A stretch of DNA of 56,864 nucleotides from a virus. The DNA is taken from the IMG/VR virus record IMGVR_UViG_3300045988_073657; one strand, given 5' to 3'. A program made the translations under genes and the position numbers. Below the pieces are notes generated by a model. The model made no database searches, was not told where the DNA came from, and saw nothing but the letters and a program-made list of their open reading frames with translations. Below, one piece after another: positions 2,599 to 56,864 of this stretch (position 1 is the stretch's first letter; the number at the start of each line of letters is the position of its first letter).

Positions 2599-3231
2599 AT
2601 GGATGTTAAGAGAATGCATGAAATGATTGAAAAACTTTCTGAATGCGCTAAAACGCAGTTTGACAAAGGAATTGACAAAGTAGATACTTGCGAAATGGGG
2701 AAAGTCGTTGATATGATGAAAGACTTATCCGAAGCAATGTACTACCGTGAGCTGACAAAAACCATGCAGGAATATGACCCGGACGAAAACATGGAAATGT
2801 TTGAACGTTACGGTGACGGTGGCAGACGGTACTATGACCATTACCGCTATGCTGACGGCAGATTTGCACCTAAAGGTCGTGGAACCTACCGCAGAGGTTA
2901 TGAAGAGCCACCCTATTACCATATGACCCCGGAAATGTATCACCGTGACATGGACAGAGACATGGGGCGTATGTACTACACGGAAACTTCTTCATCCGGT
3001 ATGCGTGATGCAAGAGAGGGCAGAAGTGGCATGAGCCGCAGAACCTACATGGAAAATAAGGAACTTCATAAGGCAAATACACAGCAGGACAAAGAAGCAA
3101 AAGTCCGTGACCTGAACACCTACATGACCGAACTTGCAAACGACATGACAGAGATCATCAACGATGCAACACCGGAAGAAAAGACTGTACTGCGAAACAA
3201 GCTGTCTGCACTGGTAACAAAAATCGGTTAA
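2599..3231 (+). CDS. Tyr/Arg/Met/Asp-rich low-complexity protein, unknown function
   Basis: 210-aa ORF after GGAGGTG; helical ends flank a YYDHYRY...RGYEEPPYYH region. Confidence 0.6.
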   Translation: MDVKRMHEMIEKLSECAKTQFDKGIDKVDTCEMGKVVDMMKDLSEAMYYRELTKTMQEYDPDENMEMFERYGDGGRRYYDHYRYADGRFAPKGRGTYRRGYEEPPYYHMTPEMYHRDMDRDMGRMYYTETSSSGMRDAREGRSGMSRRTYMENKELHKANTQQDKEAKVRDLNTYMTELANDMTEIINDATPEEKTVLRNKLSALVTKIG

Positions 3232-3777: not shown

Positions 3778-4746
3778 TTACTCTATATATAATGGCATAA
3801 ATTCACATTTGTTGTAACCTCTCCATGAATTCGTACTGTATCCTATTATTTTTCCATATACAGTTATTTTTTCACCACCGGAATAATCGGTTGCGTTTAA
3901 TCCATAATCATTAGAAAACAGTACATTGATTTGTTCCCCCATATAGCTTTCAGTACCTTCCCTCAAAACACAGCATTTTAAAAAATTCCGCTGTAAATTA
4001 TATTCTCCAAACATTTCTTGAATATAATCATAATACATATCTTTTGCTCTTAATTCATAAAGTTCTGACACAAAAAGATTTAGTTTTACATCTTTTCCCT
4101 CTAAATCATCTTGGGAGAAAAATATATCATCATAGAATAATTCAACACATGATTTTTTATATTCCTCTTCTGATAAATCATCTTCCTGCTCATATTCTAC
4201 ATAATTTTCATTTTCCATTACATTACTTTCTGATTGAGTAGCCGTAGACTCTATTTTAGAATCTGTTTCTTGATTTGTATTTTCTCCTTGATAATCAAGA
4301 TAGTTTTCGACTGATTCATTTGGTACTTCCATAGTTTTACTTTCTGCTTCTGTCAAAGACTCTATACTTACATTATTTGAAACATTTTGGTTTTCCACAT
4401 TTTGACCACCTAAAAAATAAACAAGAATTACAATTACAGAAAAAATAATTGAAAACCATGAACCGCTGTGATTTTTGTTATTTTTATCGCCTTTAACAAT
4501 ATCAATAATGGCTAAAATAATTGCTACTGGAATTGTAAGACCAAGAAGAGTGAACACAACAGATAGTATACTTAATATGCTTTGCTTTTTCTTTTTCTTA
4601 TTTTGTTGTTCCACAATATCAATGTCAAATTTAGACATACAAGCATCACAATAACCTATTCTGTGATATACCGGCAATCCTTTTTCATCCGTAGCAACTT
4701 GTTCCGGAACAACTCTCATTTCTTTACCACATTTGTAGCAATTCAT
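3778..4746 (-). CDS. Membrane protein with N-terminal CxxC...CxxC zinc ribbon, two TM helices, acidic linker and a C-terminal globular domain
   Basis: 322-aa ORF; RBS agaaggggg; opposite strand to its neighbours; hairpin 3751-3772 downstream. Confidence 0.7.
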   Translation of the reverse strand: MNCYKCGKEMRVVPEQVATDEKGLPVYHRIGYCDACMSKFDIDIVEQQNKKKKKQSILSILSVVFTLLGLTIPVAIILAIIDIVKGDKNNKNHSGSWFSIIFSVIVILVYFLGGQNVENQNVSNNVSIESLTEAESKTMEVPNESVENYLDYQGENTNQETDSKIESTATQSESNVMENENYVEYEQEDDLSEEEYKKSCVELFYDDIFFSQDDLEGKDVKLNLFVSELYELRAKDMYYDYIQEMFGEYNLQRNFLKCCVLREGTESYMGEQINVLFSNDYGLNATDYSGGEKITVYGKIIGYSTNSWRGYNKCEFMPLYIE

Positions 4747-4882: not shown

Positions 4883-4924
4883 AAGAAAAATTTTCGACAA
4901 AATATAATGAAAAAATTTTTAATC

Positions 4925-4976
4925 CCCCCGGGGTAGCAATTTTCAAGCTGAAAAATCCGTTTTCAGAGTTTTTTCG
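4925..4976 (+). repeat. About 50-bp direct repeat unit 2
   Basis: Aligns with 4831-4882. Confidence 0.7.
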
Positions 4977-5052
4977 CAGATTTTTTCAGACCGATTCAAG
5001 GTGCGGAACACCTGCGCACTTCTGCGGTGCAAGTCCTGGACCCGTCACACGG

Positions 5053-5247
5053 TCACCGTGTCGCAGCTTTTCCAAGGTCTCCGACTGCCGAAAGCATGGA
5101 ATCATACGCAGAACGCAACAGCTCCGCAGATTCCGGAGACATACCACCGGCGGCGCTCTCCACCCGAATGACGGTTTCCAGCCGTTCCCCGGCATCCGAT
5201 ACGCTCTCCATAATGTCGTATACATGACCGATTCCCAATTTTCGCAT
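5053..5247 (-). CDS. Small protein in GC-rich island, unknown function
   Basis: ORF 5053..5406 trimmed to ATG 5247 (MRKLGIGHVYDI...); RBS aagggg; promoter-like TTGACG-18-TACAAT upstream on the minus strand. Confidence 0.5.
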   Translation of the reverse strand: MRKLGIGHVYDIMESVSDAGERLETVIRVESAAGGMSPESAELLRSAYDSMLSAVGDLGKAATR

Positions 5248-5414
5248 TTTGTATAATCCCCTTGTAATATTTGATTGTACACCAAGACAGCGCAATCCGT
5301 CAATATATCTGGGCGCAGGATCTGACCGGATCCGGTGGAAGAGTAACACAAATAGACCGCCAGACGGCAGCAGATCCAACGGAACACGACAAAAAGACGG
5401 TTGCAAGCCGTCTT

Positions 5415-5531
5415 TTATCTGTTTTCAAGTTCAAAAATTGCCCACCGCAGGGCGGCGGCTGTCTCCGTGTCTTTCTCTCGCTCCACACGTTCTAACAGCT
5501 TTTAAAGTCTTTCAAGGTTCTTTTCTTTCAT
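5415..5531 (-). pseudogene. Small ORF with in-frame TAA at codon 10 (MKEKNLERL*KLLERVEREKDTETAAALRWAIFELENR)
   Basis: GGAGG 8 nt before ATG 5531; TAA at 5502-5504 in frame; hairpin terminator at about 5393-5414. Confidence 0.45.
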
Positions 5532-5619
5532 CTTGGCAACCTCCTATTTTTAATTTTTGGGTAAATTCCACCCATAAAACCGCCGCCGGTAGTGATCCGG
5601 CGGGCATCCTCTGCGGCGG

Positions 5620-5853
5620 CTATGATAACTCAAAAATTGCCGTTTTTTTCGCTTCTCGGTGTAGTTCGCTTGGATGATTTGCAATAGCTCCAAACATGGA
5701 CAACGGCAGGAGATCACAACCGACAGCTATATACAAAGCCTTTTCAACAGATGCCGTGTACACATGGCATTTCTCGCAGTGCTTGCAGTCTCCGCCGCAT
5801 TTTTCTAATTTTTTTAAAGCCGTTTCAAGCTGTTTTCGTTCTTTTTCGTTCAT
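5620..5853 (-). CDS. Cys-rich small protein of the kind seen on Firmicute conjugative elements
   Basis: 77-aa ORF; CGGDCKHCEKC motif; GC-rich hairpins 5573-5612 downstream. Confidence 0.55.
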   Translation of the reverse strand: MNEKERKQLETALKKLEKCGGDCKHCEKCHVYTASVEKALYIAVGCDLLPLSMFGAIANHPSELHREAKKTAIFELS

Positions 5854-7404: not shown

Positions 7405-7608
7405 ATGAGAAAAACAGTAGTAAATGAGTATGGAGTAAACATTGATTATGATTTGGCGGTATCTTTTATGGATGACGATTTAAGAGAGCAAATACATGGA
7501 GCATTAGCACCTTGTACAGACCAAGAATTTTTTGACGAGTATGCAAAACGGCATGAGCAAAAATTTAATGAGGTTTGGGAGCTGGCAAAAGAAAACCCTT
7601 GTTATTAA
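7405..7608 (+). CDS. Small conserved hypothetical protein
   Basis: ORF 7396..7608; ATG 7405 after aaggtggag. Confidence 0.55.
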   Translation: MRKTVVNEYGVNIDYDLAVSFMDDDLREQIHGALAPCTDQEFFDEYAKRHEQKFNEVWELAKENPCY

Positions 7609-24161: not shown

Positions 24162-25043
24162 ATGAGTTTAACAGGAATTGATGTGTCCGCATACCAGGGG
24201 ACGATTAACTGGTGGGCGGTAAAACAGAACGGTATTGATTTTGCTATTCTGAAAGTCATCCGTAAGGATTTGAACCCGGACAAGAAGTTTGAAGAGAACT
24301 GGAAAGGGTGTAAAGAGCACAATGTCCATGTGCACGGAGTATATGAATACGGATATATTACAACGGTTGCAAAATCACGATCTGATGCAAGAAGAGTGCT
24401 TACTATTCTTAATGGCAGAAAAGTGACAGTATATCTTGATGTTGAAGATGCTGTTATGAAAGGTCTTGGCAAAAATATTATTTCTATTATCAATGCTTAC
24501 GGCAAGGTAATCACCGATGCAGGATTGCAGTTCGGTGTATACACTGGGGAAAGTTTTTATAAGACATACATTAAGCCTTATGGCGGTGTGAGTTATCCTA
24601 TGTGGATCGCACGGTACGGCAAGAATAACGGCAAGTGCGATGTGAAGTATCAACCGCAAGTACCGAACATGGTAGGCTGGCAGTATACTTCTAAAGGGCG
24701 TGTAGGAGGCATTGTAGGAAATGTGGACATGAATGTATGGTACAAGGATTTAGATGCCGTATATGAGGATTCTACAAGCCATAGCAACCCTTATGCAGAG
24801 CCGGAAAGACTTCTGTATTACAAGCGTATGGCAATGATGATGAAGGGAAATGATGTCAAGTGGGCGCAGTACGAACTTGTAAGGAAAGGCTTTATGCCGT
24901 CTGTAAATGCGAAAGGTAAGACGAACATTGACGGATATTTCGGGAAAACTACTTCTGATGCAGTGAAAGCATTCCAAAAAAGTGTCGGTATCAAAGTGGA
25001 CGGAAAAATCGGTGCGGTTACAAAGGCATATCTCAAAAAGTGA
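24162..25043 (+). CDS. Endolysin: GH25 muramidase plus PG_binding_1-like C-terminal domain
   Basis: GIDVSAYQGTINW, GVYEY and C-terminal DGYFGKTTSDAVKAFQKSVGIKVDGKIG. Confidence 0.85.
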   Translation: MSLTGIDVSAYQGTINWWAVKQNGIDFAILKVIRKDLNPDKKFEENWKGCKEHNVHVHGVYEYGYITTVAKSRSDARRVLTILNGRKVTVYLDVEDAVMKGLGKNIISIINAYGKVITDAGLQFGVYTGESFYKTYIKPYGGVSYPMWIARYGKNNGKCDVKYQPQVPNMVGWQYTSKGRVGGIVGNVDMNVWYKDLDAVYEDSTSHSNPYAEPERLLYYKRMAMMMKGNDVKWAQYELVRKGFMPSVNAKGKTNIDGYFGKTTSDAVKAFQKSVGIKVDGKIGAVTKAYLKK

Positions 25044-25133: not shown

Positions 25134-28100
25134 ATGGCAGATATTGATTCTTTGCAGATTAAAATAAAAGCGGATGCAACTAGCGCAAGTAACGCACTGA
25201 ATAAACTTGCAAATAGCCTTACTAATTTTCAGAAAAGCTTGTCTATTGATACATCCAAACTGACAAGCATTTCCAACAGCATACAGAGTATCGCAAATGC
25301 CGCAAATTCCATGAATACGAGTGGCATTAAGAATATCTCCACACTGACAAATTCTATTAACAGAATGGGGAAAATAGATACAAGCGGATTAAGCAGAATT
25401 TCATCCGCACTGAAGACTTTTTCTGCTGATATGGCAGGAACCAAAGTAGATGGAGTAGGGGATATTGCAAGCATAGCATCGTCAATTTCAAGACTTGGCG
25501 GTGTGGCATCCGGCAGAGCGATTACGAACATTCCTTTACTGGCAAAGAATTTGAAGCAGTTATTCACCACTCTGTCTACCACACCAAACGTAAGCGAGAA
25601 CATTATCCGCATGACAAACGCACTGGCAGGACTGGCATCTACTGGTGCGGCATCAGGTCGGGCTGCAAACTCTTTAGGCAGAAATCTGAACACTTATACG
25701 GCAAGTGCAAAAAGAGCCACGAAGAGCACATTCAGCCTTGCAGCGGCTTTCGGAAAATTCTACGCAACGTATTTCCTTGTTATCCGTGGAATTAAAAGCC
25801 TGTGGAAATCCATAGAGGGAACTACGGACTATATTGAAGCATTTAACTACTACACAGTTGCTTTCAATAAAGTCGGCAAGGAATGGGGCAAAGACTTTGA
25901 AAAATTCGGTTACGACAATGCAGAGGATTATGCGCAGAGTTTCGGAAATCGTGTAAATGAACTGCTTGGTAAAATGTCCGGTCTGAAAGTAGATGTAGAT
26001 GGTGGATTGATTTCTGAAAGCGGAATGAAAAACCTGGGATTAAATTTACAGGAGATTACCCAGTATGCTTCACAGCTTGCATCTATCACCAACTCTTTAG
26101 GGCAGACCGGAGAAGTCACTACGGCAATTTCAAAGTCTATGACAATGCTTGCCGGAGATATTTCTTCTCTGTTCAACGTAGATTTTAGCACGGTTGCAAC
26201 TAACTTGCAGTCGGGCTTAATCGGTCAGTCAAGAGCATTGTATAAGTATGGTATTGATATAACAAATGCCACTTTACAGACTTATGCTTACAAATACGGA
26301 ATTGAAAAAGCTGTCTCCGAAATGTCACAGGCAGAGAAACAGCAGTTGCGCTTGCTGGCAATCTTAGATCAGTCCAAAGTGTCATGGGGAGATTTGGCTA
26401 ACACAATCAATTCACCCAGCAACATGATTCGCCAGTTCACAAACAACGTGAAAGAAGCTGGCATGGTTCTAGGTCAGTTATTTATTCCAGTATTGCAGAA
26501 AGTACTTCCTGTTATCAACGGTGTCGTAATTGCGATTAAGAGACTGCTTGTCAGTGTGGCAAATTTACTGGGAATCAAGATTGACTTTTCGTCATTCGGT
26601 CAAGGTGTATCCGGGTACAATGAGGATTTGGAAGATACGGCAGATGCACTGGATAAAGTGGGAACAAGCGCAAAAAATGCTCAAAGCGGAATCAGAGCAT
26701 TTGATAAATTGAAAGTTATTTCCACACCAAAATCCAGTGGTTCCGGAAGTGGTGCTGGTGGAGCAGGAATTGACCTTACCAAAGAAATCATGGATGCTAC
26801 TGCCGAGTACGAGAAAGTATGGCAAGAAGCATTTGATAAGATGCAGAACACGGCTATGGGTTGGGCTGATAAGATAGAAAAACTTCTTGAACCTGTGAAA
26901 AAGTTGTTCAAGGATTTGTTCAATGGTGATTTTTTTGAAGCAGGACAAGATTTGTCCGGCATTGTAACAGGGATATTTAACTGGATGTCCGATGCTATTG
27001 CATCTGTAGACTGGTACCAAATAGGTCAAAACATAGGACAGTTCCTTGCCGGTATTGATTGGACTTCCGTATTTACATCTGTCGGAAATTTTATAGGACA
27101 AGCAATTACAGCGGCAATCGACCTGTGGAAAGGAAGTTTTGATGCAGCACCGATTGAAACCACGATTCTGACAGCAATAGGTCTTTTGAAATTTACTGGC
27201 TTGGGAGATATACTGTGGAAAGCAATCAAAGATTCCATTGTCTTGTCAATGGGTGGTAAGGCAGGAGCAGGAATCGGAGAAACAATTCTCGGAAATCTAT
27301 TAGGAACTGGAGCAGCGGCAGGAGCAGAGGGAGCGGCAGCAGGAGCAACCGGATTGTTTGGTGGTATAAGTGCAGGGGCAGTAGCGGCAACAGCGGCTAT
27401 CACAGCAGTTGTAGCAGGACTTGCTCTTGTATATGCAACAAATGAGGATGTTAGAAAGAGTTTCAAGGAATCAATTTCAGCCATTGCGGATAATCTCACT
27501 CCTGCAATGGAGTTTTTGACAACAACGGTTATACCAGATTTACAGAATGCATGGACAGGCCTTGTGGATGTCCTAACTCCGATAGGAGAATTTTTGAAGA
27601 CTGCATTCACAAGTATATGGCAGGATATGCTAAATCCAGCACTGAAATATGTCGGTGAAGAAGTGCTTCCGAAATTGCAAAGTGCTTTTGAAAATCTTTG
27701 GAATGGAGTGCTTGTTCCGCTTGGAACATTCCTTGGAAATGTTTTGAATCCTGTGATTCAGATTGTTGCGGACATACTTACAGTGCTTTGGCAAAACGTA
27801 GTAGTGCCTTTAGCAGATGCATTAGGAAGTATTTTGGGAGCGGCTTTTGATGCGATAGTCGATAAAATGAATTTTGTGGTAGAACAAGTGAAACCAGTAA
27901 TAGAAGTATTCACCTTCTTATGGGATAATGTTTTATCTCCCATAGTCACTCATTTGTGGGAAGATTTAAAGCCTGCTTTTGAAACTGTATTTAATGCAAT
28001 AGGAAATATTATCAAAAATCTTGGAACAGCATTAAAAGGATTAATAAATTTTGTTTCTGGTGTGTTCACTGGAAACTGGAGAAAAGCATGGGACGGAATA

Positions 28101-28586
28101 AAAGATATTTTCAAAGGAGTGTTTAATGGACTTGTATCCATAGCAGAAGGATGCGTAAATCTGATTATTGATGGAATAAATGCTTTTATTGATGGTTTTG
28201 GCTTGGTTAGCGGTATATCGGAAGCTATAGGAATAAGCTTCAAGCCAGTACAAATACCTAAAATAAGTATTCCTAGATTTGAAACTGGCGGTTACGTTCC
28301 AAGCCGATACACGATGTTCATGGCAGGAGAGAACGGCGTACCGGAGATTGCCGGGACAGTAGGCGGCAAGACAGCGGTTGCCGGTGGAGTTGAAATCACT
28401 GGAATCAAAGATGCTATTAATTCCACGGCACAACAGGAAATTGCACTTCTAAAACAAAATAATCAGCTACTGCAAGGAATCCTTGAAAAAGAGTTTGGAA
28501 TAACAACAGATCAAATTGGAATTGCCGCAAGACAATACGGTCAAGAGCAATTTAACCAAAAACACAAGAATGTATATGTATTTTAA
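25134..28586 (+). CDS. Tape measure protein
   Basis: 1150 aa; helical repeats; Gly/Ala-rich TM-like core. Confidence 0.9.
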   Translation: MADIDSLQIKIKADATSASNALNKLANSLTNFQKSLSIDTSKLTSISNSIQSIANAANSMNTSGIKNISTLTNSINRMGKIDTSGLSRISSALKTFSADMAGTKVDGVGDIASIASSISRLGGVASGRAITNIPLLAKNLKQLFTTLSTTPNVSENIIRMTNALAGLASTGAASGRAANSLGRNLNTYTASAKRATKSTFSLAAAFGKFYATYFLVIRGIKSLWKSIEGTTDYIEAFNYYTVAFNKVGKEWGKDFEKFGYDNAEDYAQSFGNRVNELLGKMSGLKVDVDGGLISESGMKNLGLNLQEITQYASQLASITNSLGQTGEVTTAISKSMTMLAGDISSLFNVDFSTVATNLQSGLIGQSRALYKYGIDITNATLQTYAYKYGIEKAVSEMSQAEKQQLRLLAILDQSKVSWGDLANTINSPSNMIRQFTNNVKEAGMVLGQLFIPVLQKVLPVINGVVIAIKRLLVSVANLLGIKIDFSSFGQGVSGYNEDLEDTADALDKVGTSAKNAQSGIRAFDKLKVISTPKSSGSGSGAGGAGIDLTKEIMDATAEYEKVWQEAFDKMQNTAMGWADKIEKLLEPVKKLFKDLFNGDFFEAGQDLSGIVTGIFNWMSDAIASVDWYQIGQNIGQFLAGIDWTSVFTSVGNFIGQAITAAIDLWKGSFDAAPIETTILTAIGLLKFTGLGDILWKAIKDSIVLSMGGKAGAGIGETILGNLLGTGAAAGAEGAAAGATGLFGGISAGAVAATAAITAVVAGLALVYATNEDVRKSFKESISAIADNLTPAMEFLTTTVIPDLQNAWTGLVDVLTPIGEFLKTAFTSIWQDMLNPALKYVGEEVLPKLQSAFENLWNGVLVPLGTFLGNVLNPVIQIVADILTVLWQNVVVPLADALGSILGAAFDAIVDKMNFVVEQVKPVIEVFTFLWDNVLSPIVTHLWEDLKPAFETVFNAIGNIIKNLGTALKGLINFVSGVFTGNWRKAWDGIKDIFKGVFNGLVSIAEGCVNLIIDGINAFIDGFGLVSGISEAIGISFKPVQIPKISIPRFETGGYVPSRYTMFMAGENGVPEIAGTVGGKTAVAGGVEITGIKDAINSTAQQEIALLKQNNQLLQGILEKEFGITTDQIGIAARQYGQEQFNQKHKNVYVF

Positions 28587-29066: not shown

Positions 29067-30972
29067 CTATACCTATGCGGATTTGTTTGATAAAAGCGCA
29101 TCCAAAAAGGAAATCACGATTGAAACAGAGGACAAGTCTGTAAAAATCACCAACAGCGAAATCCATTTTGAACAGTTTGAATTAAAAGAAATCCTATGTG
29201 ATGATGATTACCTTACATTTGGACAGTGCAATGCATCACAGTTAAAATTCAAAATTTCCAACGTGTTCACAAGCATGATTGGGAAACAGATAAATGTTTC
29301 TGCTGTGATTAATGGACATGCTGACGCACCGTTTATTTTCGGCAAATACCGTGTCATTTCCGATAAACCAACAGATGATAAGCGTTACAGGAATGTGACG
29401 GCATATGACGCCATATACGATATTGGAGAATCAGAAGTATCTTCCTGGTATAACGGATTGAAATTTCCTCTGACCTTAAAGCAGTTCAGAGACAGCTTTT
29501 TTTCATATTTTGGTGTTGAGCAAGTAGCAACCACATTGCCTAATGACAGCATGGAAGTGGCAGAAACCATAAAACCAAGCGAACTTTCTGGCCAGACGGT
29601 CATGGAAGCAATCTGCTCGATAAATGGATGTTTTGGTCACATTAACCATGATGGAAAATTTGAATATGTTTTCCTTAAAGAAATAATATCTGGATTATAT
29701 CCACAAAAAGGATTATATCCACAGAAAGGATTATACCCTAGAAAAGGTTCTGAAAAAGAAAAGGTTACTGGTGGAAAATACAAATCAGTTAAATATGAAG
29801 ATTTTGTCTGCCAAAAAGTTACAAAAGTGCAGATAAGGCAATCAGAAAATGATATTGGTGCAGTTTACCCAGATACAGAGATTACCGACAACGACAACAG
29901 TTATATTTTGCAAGATAATTTCCTTGTTTATGGAATGGGTGCAGATGCACTGGAAACGGTTGCAAGAAATCTGTATGAGGTTATTAAAGTTGTAAAATAT
30001 AGACCTTATAACTGTGAAAAAATAGGAAATCCTTGTTTGAGCCTTGGAGAAGCAGTCAATGTATATACGGCTAAAGAAATCATAGAAAGCTATGTGTTGA
30101 GTAGAACATACAAAGGAATCCAACAACCGATAGACACCATATCTGCCACCGGAAAAGCACCAAAATACAGTGAACAGGTAAATGGAATTAACAAAAGTAT
30201 AATTCAACTCCGTGGAAAGACTAATGAACTAGAACGGAATGTAGAAGAGACCCGGTCTGAGATCAAGGATGTAGAGAGCGGATTGGATACGAAAATTACG
30301 CAAAATGCAGGAAAAATTGAAGCAGAAGCGAAAAGGGCAACAGATACAGAAGTAGAATTGGCAGCGGCAATATCTTTGCAGGCAGACCAAATCAAATTAA
30401 AAGTATCAAAAGGTGATGTCAGTTCTCAGTTAAGTGTTGAAAGTGGACAGGTAAGTATTTCTGGAAACCGTTTTGTATTGGAAGCAGATAACTGTAGCAT
30501 ATCAGCAGATGGAACTATAACAGCTAAAAACGCAGTAATGACTGGTAGTTTTAAGTCTATAGGGGAAGACGGAAGTTACACAGAAGTATCATCAGGTGAA
30601 ATTAAATTTTATAACGAACTATTGCAAAGCACAGGATCTATAAAAGGATTGGGACAATATCTTACTATTGATGCTTCAATGGTAAGTGTAAGCGGAATTT
30701 TAGTGGTAGGAAATGGAGCAACATATAATTCACAATATGTAAAAAACATATCAACAACTTCTCAAATATTAGGCAGTAAGACAGTACTGACAAGTGCCAC
30801 ATTAAGTGTCACAAAAAATTATATAAATGGAACCGTATCAGATGTATCTTTGGTAACACAAACAGCCAATGTTGCTGATTATCCTGGACATAATGTTAAT
30901 TTTATTACAGGAGTTTCATCACTTGGAGGTTTGCTCACTGCAACATCTGGAATTGTCACACTTATGACGTAG
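29059..30972 (+). CDS. Tail-associated (Tal-like) minor structural protein
   Basis: 637 aa; position; coiled coil near residue 400. Confidence 0.7.
   Translation: MSNYTYADLFDKSASKKEITIETEDKSVKITNSEIHFEQFELKEILCDDDYLTFGQCNASQLKFKISNVFTSMIGKQINVSAVINGHADAPFIFGKYRVISDKPTDDKRYRNVTAYDAIYDIGESEVSSWYNGLKFPLTLKQFRDSFFSYFGVEQVATTLPNDSMEVAETIKPSELSGQTVMEAICSINGCFGHINHDGKFEYVFLKEIISGLYPQKGLYPQKGLYPRKGSEKEKVTGGKYKSVKYEDFVCQKVTKVQIRQSENDIGAVYPDTEITDNDNSYILQDNFLVYGMGADALETVARNLYEVIKVVKYRPYNCEKIGNPCLSLGEAVNVYTAKEIIESYVLSRTYKGIQQPIDTISATGKAPKYSEQVNGINKSIIQLRGKTNELERNVEETRSEIKDVESGLDTKITQNAGKIEAEAKRATDTEVELAAAISLQADQIKLKVSKGDVSSQLSVESGQVSISGNRFVLEADNCSISADGTITAKNAVMTGSFKSIGEDGSYTEVSSGEIKFYNELLQSTGSIKGLGQYLTIDASMVSVSGILVVGNGATYNSQYVKNISTTSQILGSKTVLTSATLSVTKNYINGTVSDVSLVTQTANVADYPGHNVNFITGVSSLGGLLTATSGIVTLMT
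29702..29755 (+). repeat. 3 x 18-bp tandem repeat encoding GLYPQK GLYPQK GLYPRK
   Basis: ggattatatccacaaaaa / ggattatatccacagaaa / ggattataccctagaaaa. Confidence 0.9.
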
Positions 30973-30982
30973 GAGATTTATT

Positions 30983-31285
30983 ATGGTAAAAAAAATATTT
31001 ATTCTTCAAACGATTATTGGAAAAACAATGAAAGAAGTAATGGAAGAAAGGCAAGAAATTCAGCAATATATAGCTTTTACCATTGGAATTTCCACGTTTA
31101 CGGAAATCAATGCAACATTGTTTAGCACGGAAGATGGCGATGGTTTTGAAGAGTTTATGAAGCAACTTATTGACATGTCGGATACAGTGGTTGCACAGAG
31201 CGGATATGAGGTATCTGAACTGTGCAAAAATCTGTATGCGTATGCAGAAGAGCAAGGAAAAGAAATCTATGTAAGGGAGAATTGA
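30983..31285 (+). CDS. Hypothetical protein
   Basis: 100-aa ORF. Confidence 0.5.
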   Translation: MVKKIFILQTIIGKTMKEVMEERQEIQQYIAFTIGISTFTEINATLFSTEDGDGFEEFMKQLIDMSDTVVAQSGYEVSELCKNLYAYAEEQGKEIYVREN

Positions 31286-31286
31286 T

Positions 31287-31469
31287 ATGGCAGCAAATTT
31301 TGAGATTAAGAAATTAAAAAGCAACCTTGTGACAGTATTAAATCAAACACCGTTGCCTATCGAGGTGAAAAGGCTTGTACTGTATGAAGTATATTCGGAG
31401 ACTAAACAGTTATCAGATATGCAGATTATGAAAGAGGAAAACGAGGTAACTACAGATGGCAATGAATAA
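31287..31469 (+). CDS. Hypothetical small protein
   Basis: 60-aa ORF, tightly packed. Confidence 0.5.
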   Translation: MAANFEIKKLKSNLVTVLNQTPLPIEVKRLVLYEVYSETKQLSDMQIMKEENEVTTDGNE

Positions 31470-32772
31470 GGTTTATACCAGAATTAACTGGGAAGATTAC
31501 CCCAGTGAAAACACGGATTTAGATGCATACAATCTTAATCAGATGGATTCTGCTATTGATGCGTTAGACAACCGTATCGTATCACAGGATGCCTTAAAAG
31601 TAGACAAGTCTGCAATAAACGGAAACATTGCTGATTGGACTATGGATGAAACAACCGGTGTTATTACTATTACAAAATACAACGGTGAAAAAGTAATTTT
31701 TGACCTTAATATTGAAAAAATACCTGTCGAATTTTTTATGTCTGATGATGGAATCATTACCATGACTACAGAAGATGGAACACAGTTTACAGCTGATATT
31801 GGTTCTATGATTCCGGTGTTGACATTTGAAGATTCTGCAACCATAGCTGTATCCGTGACTGGTACTGGAAAGAATAAGACTTATTCTTTTTCAATCAAAA
31901 CAGGATCAGTAACAGATGCTATGCTACAGCCTAATTATTTAGCAGATATTAGAGTAGAATCCGCAAATGCATCTGCTTATGCGCAATCCGCAAATGCAAA
32001 ATCTGTATTGGCTGAATCTTATGCCATAGGTGGAACCGGAACAAGAGAAGGAGAAGATACTGATAACGCAAAGTATTATATGGAGCAGGCAAAACAGCAA
32101 ACAGGAGGTATACCTACAAAGGTTAGTGAATTAGAGAATGACGCTGGATATATTAAAAAAGATGTTGATAATCTTGTGAATTACTACGACAAGACCACTA
32201 CCGACCAAAAATTAGCCAACATTGACTTGACTGATTATCTCAAAAAGACAGGTGATGCTTCCAACACAACCGTAGCATTCACTGAGCCAGCCGACCTTGC
32301 ACAGCCGACCACAGGCGAAAAACTCAGCGGAATTATCGGCAAGGTTAGCCTTGCGATAAAGAACATCAAAACATTAATTTCTCTAATAGGAAATACTGAT
32401 ATTTCATCAATCGGAAACGGCACTGTTACGGGGGCAATTAGTGATGTAAATGGCAAGTTAAACCAAGATGCCGATTTGACTTTAGTAAATTGTGTATCGT
32501 GGAGTTCCGATAATAGCATTTCCAAAATTGGTAACAGGGTATTTGTCACAATAGGCGTACAAATTACATCTGAGCAGTCTAGCGGATCATTAATCATTAC
32601 CAATATTGCAAAGACATATTACCCTAAAAATGCGTATGTTAGAGCAAATGCAACAGGTGGTACAAGCGGCAACAATCATAATATTTATATTAATAAATCT
32701 AGTGGTACGATAATATTAAACCCATCAACGGAACGGTATTATTCTGCCAGTTTCTCATATTTGTCAGATTGA
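31456..32772 (+). CDS. Tail fibre / receptor-binding protein
   Basis: N-terminal TRINWEDYPSENTDLDAYNLNQMDSAIDALDNRI typical of phage fibre N-termini. Confidence 0.75.
   Translation: MAMNKVYTRINWEDYPSENTDLDAYNLNQMDSAIDALDNRIVSQDALKVDKSAINGNIADWTMDETTGVITITKYNGEKVIFDLNIEKIPVEFFMSDDGIITMTTEDGTQFTADIGSMIPVLTFEDSATIAVSVTGTGKNKTYSFSIKTGSVTDAMLQPNYLADIRVESANASAYAQSANAKSVLAESYAIGGTGTREGEDTDNAKYYMEQAKQQTGGIPTKVSELENDAGYIKKDVDNLVNYYDKTTTDQKLANIDLTDYLKKTGDASNTTVAFTEPADLAQPTTGEKLSGIIGKVSLAIKNIKTLISLIGNTDISSIGNGTVTGAISDVNGKLNQDADLTLVNCVSWSSDNSISKIGNRVFVTIGVQITSEQSSGSLIITNIAKTYYPKNAYVRANATGGTSGNNHNIYINKSSGTIILNPSTERYYSASFSYLSD
32445..32462 (+). repeat. Inverted-repeat arm L, TGTAAATGGCAAgTTAAA, inside the fibre gene
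   Basis: 17/18 match to the reverse complement of 33058-33075. Confidence 0.8.
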
Positions 32773-32813
32773 GATTTATTTGAAGAAGCAGCCCAATACC
32801 TTGGATTAATTAA

Positions 32814-33119
32814 TTATTTATATGCCACAACAAAATTTAATATAAATGTTGCATCATTGCTAACATTTGCAATTTGATATGCATAAAACTTGCTATTACT
32901 TGCAAATCTTACATTAACTGCCCAATCACAATTTGCAAACACCCCAAATACATTTGCATTGTTTGGCAATCCAAAGTCAGACAAGGAGCCTAAAAAGGAC
33001 TGTTTATTCGCCGCTAATAGAGTAACAGATGTTGATATTGATGCAAATTTCAAACCATTTAAATTGCCATTTACAGAAGTAATGATAACTGATGTATGCA
33101 GATTAGTAATAAAAATAAA
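32814..33119 (-). other. Start-less alternative tail-fibre C-terminal cassette in inverted orientation
   Basis: Open frame without RBS or ATG; begins ...ITSVNGNLNG, homologous to ISDVNGKLNQ of the fibre gene, then diverges. Confidence 0.55.
33058..33075 (-). repeat. Inverted-repeat arm R (TGTAAATGGCAAtTTAAA on the minus strand)
   Basis: See 32445-32462. Confidence 0.8.
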
Positions 33120-33125
33120 TCAATC

Positions 33126-33160
33126 AAAAAGAGCATGGTGTAGAAGCCATGCTCTTAATT
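33126..33160. terminator. Bidirectional terminator
   Basis: 9-bp stem agagcatgg/ccatgctct flanked by A5 and T-run. Confidence 0.75.
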
Positions 33161-33161
33161 T

Positions 33162-33953
33162 TTATCTGATTCCCCAGTCACCATCATTATTTACAAAACC
33201 AACCACATATCCTATCATGTCATCAATTATGTGTCCCGGAAGTATACTGTTCGGAGACATAAGCGGAACATATCTCCATTTTCTTGCGCCATCTTCAATT
33301 ATATGGGTTTTCACGACAATATATATCCCACCATTACTGGTCACAATACATCGTTCACCGTCTTGTGGTTCACGATCTGCGGAAAGGAGAATAATTTCCC
33401 CTGGAAGATAAAACGGCATATAGTAGTCACAGGGAATTTTCAAACCGATATAAGTCTTTGATTTTATGTTTTCAGGCAAATTGTCTATGCACATTGGTTC
33501 CACAGCATTTGTGGTTGCGATAATTCCATTCATAAGTTGTGGATTAAGGACAGAAATATACTTGTGTGATTTTTCAAGACTGGAATAGATTTTATCTTGG
33601 TGACGGATGAAGTAGCGGATAAGGTACAGAGAGTGTTCTGGCAGACTGCGGCATATCTTGACAGATTCCAACATCTTATCTTCCATAGTGCCACAACCTA
33701 CCAGTTCATCTACGCTGATTCCAAAGGCTCTAGCAAGCGCAACAGCGGTAGATAGCTTTGTGTCGTTAGAATTACCGTACAGTAGTGAATTAAGCGTAGA
33801 ATAAGGCAAATTAGCTTCATCAGCAAGCTTGTACACTGTCATGTCCGGTTCATTGAGAAATTCGTGGAGATTACCACGAAAACTTAACATATAATTTGCA
33901 CGGTTGACTGATAGATGTGTCGATATTTCTTTGATTCGGTCTTTTTCCATCAT
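33162..33953 (-). CDS. CI-like repressor: XRE HTH plus LexA/S24-like C-terminal domain
   Basis: ORF trimmed to ATG 33953 after gaaaggggg; YKLADEANLPYSTLNSLLYG HTH. Confidence 0.7.
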   Translation of the reverse strand: MMEKDRIKEISTHLSVNRANYMLSFRGNLHEFLNEPDMTVYKLADEANLPYSTLNSLLYGNSNDTKLSTAVALARAFGISVDELVGCGTMEDKMLESVKICRSLPEHSLYLIRYFIRHQDKIYSSLEKSHKYISVLNPQLMNGIIATTNAVEPMCIDNLPENIKSKTYIGLKIPCDYYMPFYLPGEIILLSADREPQDGERCIVTSNGGIYIVVKTHIIEDGARKWRYVPLMSPNSILPGHIIDDMIGYVVGFVNNDGDWGIR

Positions 33954-34100
33954 GTTTTTTGTCCCCCTTTCACATGATACACTTGTAACATCCCTTGAAA
34001 CGAGGGACATCAAGTTCTGGCGAGGGCGGTGTTTATTGGCGTTTTCACCGTCCTCTTTTTGTTGATATTTTACAACAATAAAAAACGTGCGTCAAATATA

Positions 34101-44747: not shown

Positions 44748-44937
44748 CACATTTTATAGACCACTTACACCACAATTAAGAAGTGAAATAATGCAGAGCA
44801 TTGATTCAAACATATCCGAACTGAATACCTGTCAAAACAATTCTTTAGTCAATATGCAAAAGACAGGATATGGGGCATTGAGAAATATTATAAATGCTTT
44901 GCCGGACGGATATTTGATTCCATTTGAAAGGCGGTGA
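44740..44937 (+). CDS. Hypothetical small protein
   Basis: ATG 44740 after ggtggtg. Confidence 0.45.
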   Translation: MADTFYRPLTPQLRSEIMQSIDSNISELNTCQNNSLVNMQKTGYGALRNIINALPDGYLIPFERR

Positions 44938-45545
44938 AGTGGTTGGCTGATTGGAAGAACGTAGCAAAGGCAAAAGCCATTGAGAAAAAGAACCGTGAGC
45001 GCATACTGACTGTTAATCCTTATGTGGACGAAAAAAGCGGAATCTATTTTCTGACAAGGACAGACGAGGACGGTTTTCGATATGCCTATATCGGGCAAGC
45101 GGTCAATCTGCTTTCAAGGCTTGCCGGACACCTTAAAGGCTATCAGCACATAGACCTGTCAATCAAAAGTCATGGTCTGTATTCTACGGACAACATCTAC
45201 GGTTGGAAAATAGGCTTTATGCACTATTCGGCTGAAGAGTTAGATAAGTGGGAGCAATACTGGATAAAGAAATATGCTGAAGGTGGTTATCAGCTTCGCA
45301 ACAAGACAGCCGGTGGTCAAGGTGATGGAAAGAAGCAGATCGCAGAGTACAGACCGGGAAAAGGTTACCGTGATGGACTGACACAGGGAAGAATCAACCT
45401 TGCAAGGGAACTGGCGAACATTGCAGACAAGCATCTAGTCATCAGTTTGAAGCCTGAGAAGCAGAACAATTCCGTGTCGCAGAAGCAATTTGCGAAGTTT
45501 ATGGAACTTTTGCATGGAGAAAAGGAAGGTGGCAGTGATGAATAA
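44934..45545 (+). CDS. GIY-YIG nuclease
   Basis: SGIYFL...YIGQAVNLLSRLAGH...EQYWIKKY. Confidence 0.7.
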   Translation: MKWLADWKNVAKAKAIEKKNRERILTVNPYVDEKSGIYFLTRTDEDGFRYAYIGQAVNLLSRLAGHLKGYQHIDLSIKSHGLYSTDNIYGWKIGFMHYSAEELDKWEQYWIKKYAEGGYQLRNKTAGGQGDGKKQIAEYRPGKGYRDGLTQGRINLARELANIADKHLVISLKPEKQNNSVSQKQFAKFMELLHGEKEGGSDE

Positions 45546-55583: not shown

Positions 55584-56714
55584 GTGGGAAAAGACCTAAA
55601 AGGAAAGGAACTGGGCTCTGGAATAAGCCAGCGCAAAGATGGTTTGTATGTTGGAAGATACACAAACAGAATAGGAAAACGTATTCAAAAAGTTTTCCCC
55701 AAATTGCAAGAGTGTAGGAAATGGTTGTCTGATTCTCAATACGAGGACGAACACACAAACCTTGATTTTCCAAAAGATATGCTTGTGGATGCATGGTACG
55801 ACTACTGGATTAAAATAAAAGAAAAGACCGTAAGATATAATACCTGTAGAAACTACAGAGAAAGATATGATAGGAATATATCACCTGTGATAGGAAAGAA
55901 AATTCTTAAAGATGTCACAACTATTGACTGTCAAAGGATTATGAACAAAATGTCTGATGAAGGATATAGGACAACGACAATCTATCAGGCAAGGATAGCA
56001 CTTTACAATATGCTTGACTATGCATATCAGAATGATGTTATATTGAAGAATCCATGCAATAAGACTGTAAAACACAATATTGGGAAATGTTCTACTAAAA
56101 AAGAAGCATTAACAATAGAACAACAGAAAATATTCTGCAATTCAATTACTGGGAGTTCTTATGAATATCAGTACAGATTTATATTGCAGACAGGACTTCG
56201 TACTGGTGAATTAGTCGGATTAAAATGGAGTGATGTTGATTTTAAGAATAAGACAATATCAATTCAAAGAGCAACGGAATATAGACATTCCAACAAAGAA
56301 TGGAAAACAGGAGAGCCAAAAAGTAAAGCCGGATACCGTACAATTCCTCTGACTGATGAAGCTGTAAATATTTTGAGATTGCAGAAGAAAAAGAACCAGT
56401 CATTTCAAATGATTGAAATGGAATGGAAAGATCAGGTTTTTCTGTGCAAAAAAGGAACACCAGTTAAAAACAGCACGTATGACACGGCACTTTTTAAAAT
56501 TTGCGAAAAATGTAATCTTCCTAAGTTTTCTATGCACGTTTTGAGACATACTTTTGCTACTAGATGTATTGAAGCCGGAATGATTCCTAAGACACTTCAA
56601 ACAATTTTGGGGCATTCAAATATATCTATTACAATGAATTTATATGTGCATACAACAGAAGATCAGAAGAGCAAAGAAATGGAAAAAGTGGCGTGTGCGC
56701 TTAAAGTAGTCTAA
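55584..56714 (+). CDS. int: Tyrosine integrase
   Basis: GTG start; C-terminal HVLRHTFATRCIEAG...LGHSNISITMNLYVH. Confidence 0.9.
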   Translation: MGKDLKGKELGSGISQRKDGLYVGRYTNRIGKRIQKVFPKLQECRKWLSDSQYEDEHTNLDFPKDMLVDAWYDYWIKIKEKTVRYNTCRNYRERYDRNISPVIGKKILKDVTTIDCQRIMNKMSDEGYRTTTIYQARIALYNMLDYAYQNDVILKNPCNKTVKHNIGKCSTKKEALTIEQQKIFCNSITGSSYEYQYRFILQTGLRTGELVGLKWSDVDFKNKTISIQRATEYRHSNKEWKTGEPKSKAGYRTIPLTDEAVNILRLQKKKNQSFQMIEMEWKDQVFLCKKGTPVKNSTYDTALFKICEKCNLPKFSMHVLRHTFATRCIEAGMIPKTLQTILGHSNISITMNLYVHTTEDQKSKEMEKVACALKVV

Positions 56715-56737
56715 AATTGGTACGTAATTGGTACGTA
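56713..56737 (+). repeat. 25-bp direct repeat, copy 2, starting at the last base of the integrase stop codon
   Basis: Exact match to 133-157. Confidence 0.8.
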
Positions 56738-56800
56738 AACAGTATATTAAAACTAAGAAATGCTGATAAATACTATGTTTTTAAGGAGGTAAAATTAAAA

Positions 56801-56836
56801 ATGAAATTAGGTATCGTAATTAAAAGCCATTTTTAA
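56801..56836 (+). CDS. 11-codon mini-ORF (MKLGIVIKSHF) with a strong SD
   Basis: AAGGAGGT at 56783-56790, 10 nt before the ATG. Confidence 0.25.
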   Translation: MKLGIVIKSHF

Positions 56837-56864
56837 CGTATATTAACATAATGCGTTATATGCC
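56810..56864. repeat. Terminal overlap, identical to 1-55
   Basis: Direct comparison of the two window ends. Confidence 0.95.

Follow-up and report, generated by a model that had tools for sequence, protein, structure and literature searches.

The tail fibre gene of the phage genome IMGVR_UViG_3300045988_073657 (IMG/VR; 56,864 nucleotides (nt), the whole stretch that was analysed and that is called the window in the following) ends in a short DNA segment that probably acts as a working two-cassette invertible fibre-tip switch, flipped by conservative site-specific inversion with an enzyme that is supplied in trans. The comparison with related loci shows that the segment inverts in nature, as both orientations occur and the junctions lie at a pair of inverted repeats. 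Of this proposal, the inversion itself and its site specificity are well supported. The switch is composed of the following elements, given in window coordinates:

31456-32772, plus strand: open reading frame (ORF) of the fibre or receptor-binding protein (RBP), 438 amino acids (aa)
31456..32444, plus strand: constant part of the fibre, codons 1-329, ending in the shaft motif ...IGNGTVTGAIS
32437..32462, plus strand: left recombination site, an inverted-repeat arm
32457..32772, plus strand: expressed tip cassette A, ~105 codons and a stop codon; the G at 32457 moves with the cassette
32773..32813: spacer of 41 nt separating the convergent stop codons
32814..33063, minus strand: silent tip cassette B, without promoter and start codon, 80 codons after VNG and a stop codon; the T at 33063 (A on the plus strand) moves with the cassette
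33058..33083, minus strand: right recombination site, with the core at 33060-33075
33075..33087, minus strand: non-coding outer arm of the right site, TATCATTACTTCT on the minus strand

An earlier description based on the letters of the window alone, referred to here as the sequence-only reading, had proposed that the fibre gene is followed on the opposite strand by a start-less frame at 32814-33119. The ORF analysis agrees with both frames. On the minus strand, the frame extends from 33119 to the stop codon at 32814-32816 and reads ...ITSVNGNLNG followed by LKFAS...VAYK. It contains no ATG, and it can be added that its sole in-frame TTG, at 33053, lacks an obvious ribosome-binding site (RBS). 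The two C-termini, which had been described as diverging after a shared VNG motif, are indeed unrelated in sequence (BLASTP, E=1.2 for tip A against tip B). Moreover, the inverted repeat with 17 matches in 18 positions at 32445-32462 and 33058-33075 was recovered by a repeat finder within longer arms of 26 nt (32437-32462 and 33058-33083) that are 85% complementary. No further copy of the 18-mer occurs in the whole window, even with three mismatches permitted. Other imperfect inverted repeats of 25-29 nt are present in the same 3.5 kb, and at least two loose matches were obtained in 8 of 100 shuffles. Because the repeat alone is not striking within the window, its significance rests on the comparison with relatives. 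In silico inversion between the cores gives an in-frame fibre of 416 aa, as expected from the claim that inversion would fuse the alternative tip to the constant part, and exactly this flipped protein is already on record in public data as P0011, encoded on L020 (Lnnn denotes related loci and Pnnnn public proteins that were compared with the window phage).

The flipped arrangement was looked for in related phages and was found. In L001, the stretch 32437-33083 is reversed at 98.6% identity over 647 nt between collinear flanks, and L020, which belongs to a different phage backbone, carries the same segment reversed at 99.2% identity. A scan of viral contigs brought 80 more loci to light, giving ~85 related loci in all, and the addition of 107 further metagenome loci raised the number of loci of the VNGKL site type to ~190. 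With few exceptions, a complete locus pairs an expressed tip with a silent, inverted one, and both start at VNGKL. Clustering separated 38 tip types and, in 64 loci, 24 cassette pairings. Eight of the pairings were encountered three times or more, and six of these exist in both orientations. Tip A takes the silent, inverted position in L001, L020, L041, L043, L050, L054, L055 and L080, and tip B is the expressed tip in L001, L004, L020, L041 and others. Contigs encoding exactly the same 637-aa protein upstream carry fibres of 416, 420 and 441 aa. In loci of opposite orientation, such as L023 and L055, the segments are 99-100% identical, as against 93-98.8% for the flanks.

The silent cassette is intact in every complete locus, except in the single-cassette variant typified by L063. 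For cassettes that are known both in the active and in the silent state, the ratio of nonsynonymous to synonymous polymorphism (pN/pS) is 0.18-0.25, which is indicative of purifying selection, so that the silent copies are kept as coding sequence. Due to the intact silent cassettes and the purifying selection, the suggestion of the sequence-only reading that the cassette might be a recombination relic was rejected. The single-cassette variant, which has a segment of 322 bp, is represented by L044, L063, L064, L066, L070 and L091. One orientation of this variant provides a tip of 101 residues, and in the other the fibre would stop 15 residues beyond VNG; only the full-length state is seen in the six loci.

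Seven of 80 metagenome contigs (L157, L165, L191, L197, L204, L215 and L226), which stem from independent samples and carry seven different tips, end exactly 41 nt past the right-site pattern, and only three other contig ends lie within 150 nt of it. These breaks suggest an assembly-graph junction that is caused by mixed orientations. They also bear on the view that the switch no longer flips and that the orientations are old fixed states, which have been spread by horizontal transfer of the module. For the latter it can be said that orientation differences have been seen only between samples, that the module is demonstrably mobile between backbones (see below) and that the segments are more alike than the flanks. 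However, six independent pairs are known in both orientations without a change of flank allele class or backbone, the silent cassettes are intact and under purifying selection, and contigs break at the site. Furthermore, base variants of the site remain on the flank through flips (C5 and A7, see below), and moving a pre-inverted segment would itself need an exchange at both 16-bp cores. Old fixed states are thus a very improbable explanation.

All junctions fall inside the 16-nt core TGTAAATGGCAAGTTA. In the window phage, the left core T-GTAAATGGCAAGTTA occupies 32445-32460 and encodes (D)VNGKL. The bases of the core are numbered G1 T2 A3 A4 A5 T6 G7 G8 C9 A10 A11 G12 T13 T14 A15, with G1 at 32446 in the left and at 33074 in the right site. 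T(-1) and the 15-base core are identical on both sides in 43 of the 76 related loci in which this core delimits an inverted cassette, and differ at 1-3 positions in the rest, and identity on both sides is seen across dozens of unrelated tips. In 85 loci, the core shows no variation at synonymous positions, in contrast to the 30 nt of coding flank that precede it. The outer arm is never translated, yet its consensus TAT[CG]A[CT]TNCTTCT recurs in four right-flank families that are unrelated in other respects. The site is asymmetric: conservation is seen in the core and the outer arm, and variable tip-coding sequence makes up the inner arm. Each locus has exactly two sites, rather than the three or more by which a shufflon is recognised. 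A third exact copy of 12 nt, TGTAAATGGCAA, is located at L123:3345-3356, in the 3' end of a 635-aa early gene of a serine-integrase backbone; it is probably there by chance.

The position of the exchange can be narrowed down by following base variants through inversion. The C5 variant is confined to left sites and occurs in nine loci with eight different tips, including both orientations of the pair L040/L057. The A7 variant is found at the left sites of ten loci, among them both orientations of the pair 9/20 (L078, L067); at right sites it is present only in L091 and L115, where both sites have A7. The T12 variant always moves with the cassette. The window phage conforms to this pattern: the differing bases at 32457/33063 (G/T) are carried along by the segment, and the GTGA/CTTC difference is retained by the flanks. 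In L080, only TGGCAA is common to the two sites between mismatches. Since C5 and A7 are linked to the flank and T12 is linked to the cassette, the comparison of loci places strand exchange within GCAA (positions 8-11; 32453-32456 and 33064-33067). The core can also be divided into two imperfect dyad arms and an intervening 6-bp spacer (TGTAAA-TGGCAA-GTTAAA), and under this reading the loci with A7 on both sides look like the result of heteroduplex repair. The outer half-site and a gix half-site are alike at 8 of 12 positions, which is a lead only.

This mapping has consequences for a homology-driven inversion, in which the phage RecT protein, the host RecA protein or template switching during replication would act on the short repeat. 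The phage indeed encodes a RecT-family annealing protein and a nuclease-like partner, junctions necessarily fall in shared sequence, and lineages differ in the sequence of the repeat at the same position of the protein. However, the shared sequence comprises only 12-18 bp, and in L080 there are 6 bp between mismatches. C5, A7 and T12 confine the exchange to 4 bp, although identity mostly extends further. Moreover, the non-coding outer arm is conserved beyond the shared core, and sister lineages keep a dedicated recombinase beside the repeat (see below). Homology-driven inversion is accordingly considered distinctly improbable.

The absence of a Gin/Hin/Cin-type invertase, which had been noticed before, has been borne out by two kinds of searches. 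Pfam and PHROG scans of 84 ORFs detected neither a resolvase/invertase nor a transposase; the scans identified one tyrosine integrase, a Tn916-Xis-like partner, RecT, methyltransferases as well as HNH and GIY-YIG nucleases. A six-frame search of the complete genome by phmmer and tblastn, for which a genuine serine recombinase, Hin/Gin/gamma-delta sequences and the integrase (Int) of the window phage served as queries, uncovered no recombinase besides Int. As a positive control, the same queries detect serine recombinases in related loci with E values of ~1e-6 to 1e-7. The ORF at 3778-4746 had been considered as an integrase and was rejected because it encodes a membrane protein. No reverse-transcriptase family is among the Pfam matches and the tips are unrelated, so the features of a diversity-generating retroelement are not seen.

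The switch is part of a module that has been exchanged with a second phage backbone:

30173..33083, plus strand: mobile tail-tip module, 97-99% identity with an unrelated backbone

This module comprises the 3' third of the Tal-like gene, two short genes (100 and 60 aa), the fibre gene and the invertible segment, and it contains no recombinase. L020 shares only 30173-33083 with the window phage, and its integrase is a large serine recombinase. The second backbone accounts for 10 of the ~85 loci and encodes the large serine recombinase ~1.3 kb from the switch. In the 21 kb that were examined, the non-tail genes in common with the window phage are those for a GIY-YIG nuclease, a DUF551 protein and small early proteins. 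The boundaries of the mosaic are sharp, from 30173 inside the 637-aa gene to ~33110, and the module moves as a unit. The GIY-YIG nuclease (203 aa, 44934-45545) is the best-conserved non-tail protein that is common to the second backbone (56-66% identity), and it may be mobile.

The second backbone is informative as to whether an unannotated ORF of the phage could be a recombinase of an unrecognised kind. Several ORFs of 150-320 aa, such as 1248-2042, 2599-3231 and 3778-4746, are without a family match and could in principle hide such an enzyme. However, the genes that are common to the second backbone include none that resembles a conservative recombinase, and the module that moves between the backbones has no candidate gene. 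A hidden recombinase among the genes that are common to both backbones was rejected, only the GIY-YIG nuclease, DUF551 and small proteins being present. Only the slightest probability is therefore given to such an ORF.

Sister lineages of the switch provide a hint at the class of the enzyme. More distant fibres (~50% identity) retain the shaft end ...IGDGTVTGAIS(A/T)LNSN..., and in L127, L152 and L153 this junction is a 17-23-nt inverted repeat that is accompanied by a silent inverted cassette. The repeat contains GTGCACTAAACTCAAAC... in L127 and L152 and ..CGCTAAACTCGAAT.. in L153. In all three loci, the gene for a 333-aa XerD-like recombinase (PF13495+PF00589) begins ~50-120 nt beyond the right repeat; the copy of L127 is shortened to 203 aa. 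The tail of L153 differs and shows a weak BppU_N match. The recombinase family has 460 members at E<=1e-10, many of which are located on very short contigs. In L130 and L131, the recombinase gene lies between the genes for fibre and endolysin and there is no inverted cassette, and L128 and L129 are more distant fibre relatives without any switch. In L133-L144 (~4911-5651 each), the XerD-like gene beside the fibre gene is fragmented and an inverted cassette is missing as well, which suggests that the enzyme decayed after the switch had been lost.

The window phage has no member of this XerD-like family, as only Int matches it (E=3e-6), and the family is absent from the ~190 loci with a VNGKL site, 41 of the 107 further metagenome loci having at least 3 kb of outer flank. 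As no family member is present at these loci, the VNGKL-type switch can be regarded as an orphan relative of the switches that bear a tyrosine invertase.

The integrase of the phage might double as the fibre invertase. The relevant features are:

55584..56714, plus strand: lambda-type tyrosine integrase, the only site-specific recombinase of the genome
55115-55510: Tn916-Xis-like gene
137-158 and 56717-56738: putative arm-type sites of the integrase, tandem TTGGTACGTAA copies on both sides of the attP core

Int is the sole site-specific recombinase in a complete genome, the sister switches use tyrosine recombinases, and the fibre core is readable as 6-bp imperfect dyad arms around a 6-bp spacer, all of which speaks for such a double role. 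However, the att core (homology GGTATCGTA, within the dyad AATTA-GGTATCG-TAATT) is unrelated to the fibre core. The arm sites TTGGTACGTAA are present twice on each side of attP (five matches vs 0.7 expected), and neither the att core nor the arm sites were found near the fibre gene; both occur only at attP, apart from one arm copy with one mismatch at 28292 in the tape-measure gene. Int is also distant from the switch-adjacent family, without a significant BLASTP match, and the identical switch flips in the serine-integrase backbone, where no tyrosine recombinase is encoded within 10 kb on either side. A role of Int as the fibre invertase is thus unlikely.

Some likenesses of the site to known recombination sites were rejected. 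An ungapped match of attP to the left site at 14 of 22 positions is out of the crossover register and absent from other left-flank alleles. A likeness of TTCTGTAAAT to the XerD arm of dif would place the crossover in the outer flank, and it was rejected because the mapping excludes this position. The flagellar repeat that is recognised by RecV, AAGTT(A/G)CTAT(A/T)TTACAAAAAA (PMC5386303), matches the core only with a gap of 1 nt and in opposite polarity.

The switch is located in a gene with the hallmarks of a host-recognition factor. The fibre gene is the last tail gene, following the genes for the tape measure, the Dit-like and the Tal-like proteins. The homolog in phage Jekyll, which has 42% identity over residues 3-335, is likewise the last tail gene before those for holin and endolysin. 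A search of the full library revealed 3385 cluster representatives with the same N-terminal 185-230 aa and diverse C-termini, and total sizes range from 130 to 1235 aa among the 150 matches listed. The position of the gene and the architecture of the family point to a receptor-binding fibre, the tip of which would set the host range. Searches of Pfam and PDB gave no match for the fibre itself. The invertible segments, which measure 322-827 bp, leave no room for chaperone genes. The spacer is reduced to 0-5 nt ('taatta') in many relatives; the stop codons often abut and are 0-63 nt apart in most loci.

The proposed mechanism starts from the following anatomy. The constant N-terminal part of the fibre (335 residues) ends at the 16-bp site encoding VNGKL. 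An inverted copy of the site lies ~0.6 kb downstream, and the two convergent tip cassettes (80-115 codons) are arranged back to back between the two. Recombination between the sites, with exchange within GCAA, would invert the segment and thereby fuse the other tip in frame to the constant part. The displaced tip would turn silent, having neither promoter nor start codon and being shielded by a terminator. The recombinase is not encoded beside the switch and most likely not by the phage; we infer that the lysogenised host or a co-resident prophage supplies it in trans, and it is probably an XerD-like tyrosine recombinase such as that beside the equivalent switch in the sister lineages. Shielding would be brought about by the following arrangement:

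33129..33156: bidirectional intrinsic terminator, which ends the fibre operon
33162-34013, minus strand: CI-like repressor gene

The terminator at 33129..33156 separates the silent cassette from the CI-like repressor gene and would keep the leftward transcripts of the latter out of it. A broader version of the proposal holds that an enzyme-less cassette module travels between backbones and is flipped by the recombinase of the host or of a co-resident prophage, so that bet-hedging in host recognition depends on the recombinases of the cell; we regard the chances for and against this version as evenly balanced.

Several observations weigh against a switch that is currently flipped by an XerD-like enzyme in trans. 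Orientation differences have been seen between samples only, and the offset of 41 nt at the contig breaks is 2 nt off the expectation for K=55. The mapped 4 bp, or 6 bp where the A7 heterology is accepted, make a short overlap for a tyrosine recombinase, and a serine-type crossover of 2 bp fits the 4-bp window at least as well. In addition, the sites of the sister lineages (CACTAAACTCAAAC...) match the core at only 8 of 15 positions, and for this reason it cannot simply be assumed that the sister enzymes act here. Finally, the AlphaFold model of the fibre, which was derived from a shallow alignment, has a mean predicted local distance difference test (pLDDT) score of 34.8 and is unusable; the receptor-binding role of the tip is deduced from its position.

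The genome is a complete circle: the first and the last 55 bases of the window are identical (55-bp terminal overlap), as is typical of a circular assembly. Circular contigs of ~56.6-57.0 kb carry the same integrase gene, which was also found integrated beside the host genes ychF-lgt-mraZ-rsmH and a gene for a penicillin-binding protein. The integration target is the 5' end of the host ychF gene, of which the phage replaces the RBS and the first codons. Further features of the genome that are of relevance here are:

56780-56864 and 1-20: ychF replacement, own RBS and ATGAAATTAGGTATCGTA
25134-28586: tape-measure gene, 1150 aa

In integrated copies, the flanking YchF, Lgt and RsmH proteins match those of Simiaoa sunii, Waltera sp. 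and Clostridium sp. CAG:91 exactly, and the host was assigned to these organisms because of these flanking genes. The phage is a temperate siphophage of human-gut Lachnospiraceae (Simiaoa/Waltera). The genes are arranged in the order tape measure, DUF6711 Dit-like, 637-aa Tal-like, 100-aa, 60-aa, fibre and, on the opposite strand, CI-like repressor. A lysin gene with GH25 and PG_binding_1 domains (293 aa, 24162-25043) precedes the tape-measure gene and does not occupy the position of a post-tail lysis module. Moreover, a 67-aa ORF at ~7405-7608 corresponds to a gene of L018 with a precomputed match to the anti-CRISPR family AcrIC5 of Pfam. A DNA search of INPHARED retrieved no close phage relatives. 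In the INPHARED protein search, Roseburia phage Jekyll, which lacks the switch, was the only match, and a scan of species-representative genomes yielded only two distant relatives, both without the switch.

Inversion of tail-fibre genes is a textbook example of a host-range hedge. To our knowledge, almost all systems that have been studied in detail are from Gram-negative myophages with a serine invertase of their own. The present locus represents a compact 0.6-kb form of fibre-tip inversion in very common temperate phages of human-gut Lachnospiraceae, with at least 38 interchangeable tips and without an invertase gene. Should the enzyme be provided by the cell or by another prophage, host-range switching would be context-dependent and host predictions for the gut virome that are derived from one assembled orientation would be incomplete. 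Moreover, the 16-bp site and the enzyme would then constitute a compact new inversion tool. Through the sister lineages with the adjacent XerD-like recombinase, the enzyme class becomes directly accessible to experiment. Assemblies may also break at such sites, which matters for the recovery of phages from metagenomes.

The sequence-only reading had likened the locus to Mu G, P1 C and the shufflons. The likeness holds in so far as the locus is an invertible fibre switch; however, the closest counterparts are the Rin shufflon and an orphan inversion of bifidophages. The switches Mu G/Gin, P1 C/Cin, e14 P/Pin and p15B Min combine a constant fibre N-terminus with invertible alternative C-termini, and crossover takes place in coding sequence. 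Switches of the Mu/P1 type are found in Gram-negative myophages and have segments of ~3 kb or larger with U/U' chaperone genes. A small serine invertase is encoded next to the segment, the gix/cix sites measure 26 bp, and there is an enhancer that depends on Fis. Thus, the logic of a constant N-terminus and alternative C-termini is the same, whereas the present switch has a segment of ~0.6 kb without room for chaperone genes and no serine recombinase (PF00239).

A description of a VNGKL-type system was not found in a literature search. The Rin shufflon of Bifidobacterium breve and B. longum prophages relies on a XerD-like tyrosine invertase, RBP cassettes of ~100 residues and asymmetric 11-bp sites (Mavrich et al. 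2018; PMC6109161). Both systems belong to temperate siphophages of Gram-positive gut bacteria. In both, inversion joins a constant N-terminal RBP part to alternative C-terminal cassettes of ~95-100 residues, and short asymmetric crossover sites are positioned at the cassette starts of a segment without chaperone genes. An armless XerD-like recombinase is encoded directly beside the cassettes in Rin as well as in the sister lineages L127, L152 and L153. In contrast, Rin has 3-5 cassettes, several rix sites and multiple inversions, whereas two sites and two cassettes are present here. The rin gene flanks its locus, whereas the lineage of the window phage has no such gene anywhere in the genome. 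Furthermore, the site sequences are unrelated (TTCCCTAACCC in Rin vs TGTAAATGGCAAGTTA).

The tRNA-Met-integrated bifidophages 689b-1 and Bb423phi2 differ in the orientation of a ~500-bp segment, which is inverted at an 8-bp repeat and spans the 3' end of one gene of the tail region together with a small gene facing it; no recombinase gene flanks the segment, and the authors proposed a trans-acting invertase (PMC6109161). Inversion at a short repeat without a flanking recombinase is common to both cases. The bifidophage case is known from two genomes and concerns genes without known function, whereas here the gene is placed as the distal fibre, ~190 loci were examined, six cassette pairs are known in both orientations and 4 bp delimit the exchange; the genome is also complete, and sister lineages with the enzyme in cis are known.

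The sfx sites of the R64 shufflon, which is served by Rci, consist of a conserved core and one arm, while the other arm is variable, an asymmetry to which the limitation of the reaction to inversion has been attributed (PMC11852207). The asymmetry of the sites is the same here, and in R64, too, the C-terminus of an adhesin is switched, by a tyrosine recombinase; however, R64 concerns a plasmid pilus adhesin with seven sites, four segments and an adjacent rci gene. Mpi of Bacteroides fragilis and RecV of Clostridioides difficile are distant recombinases that serve several loci (PMC5903667). These systems are also invertible DNA without a neighbouring recombinase, but they are chromosomal and mostly promoter switches. 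Surveys of programmed inversions list tail fibres among the targets and tyrosine recombinases among the neighbours (PMC9881135). Compared with all these systems, the switch described here is a compact, widespread and orphan variant of the known fibre-tip inversion switch.

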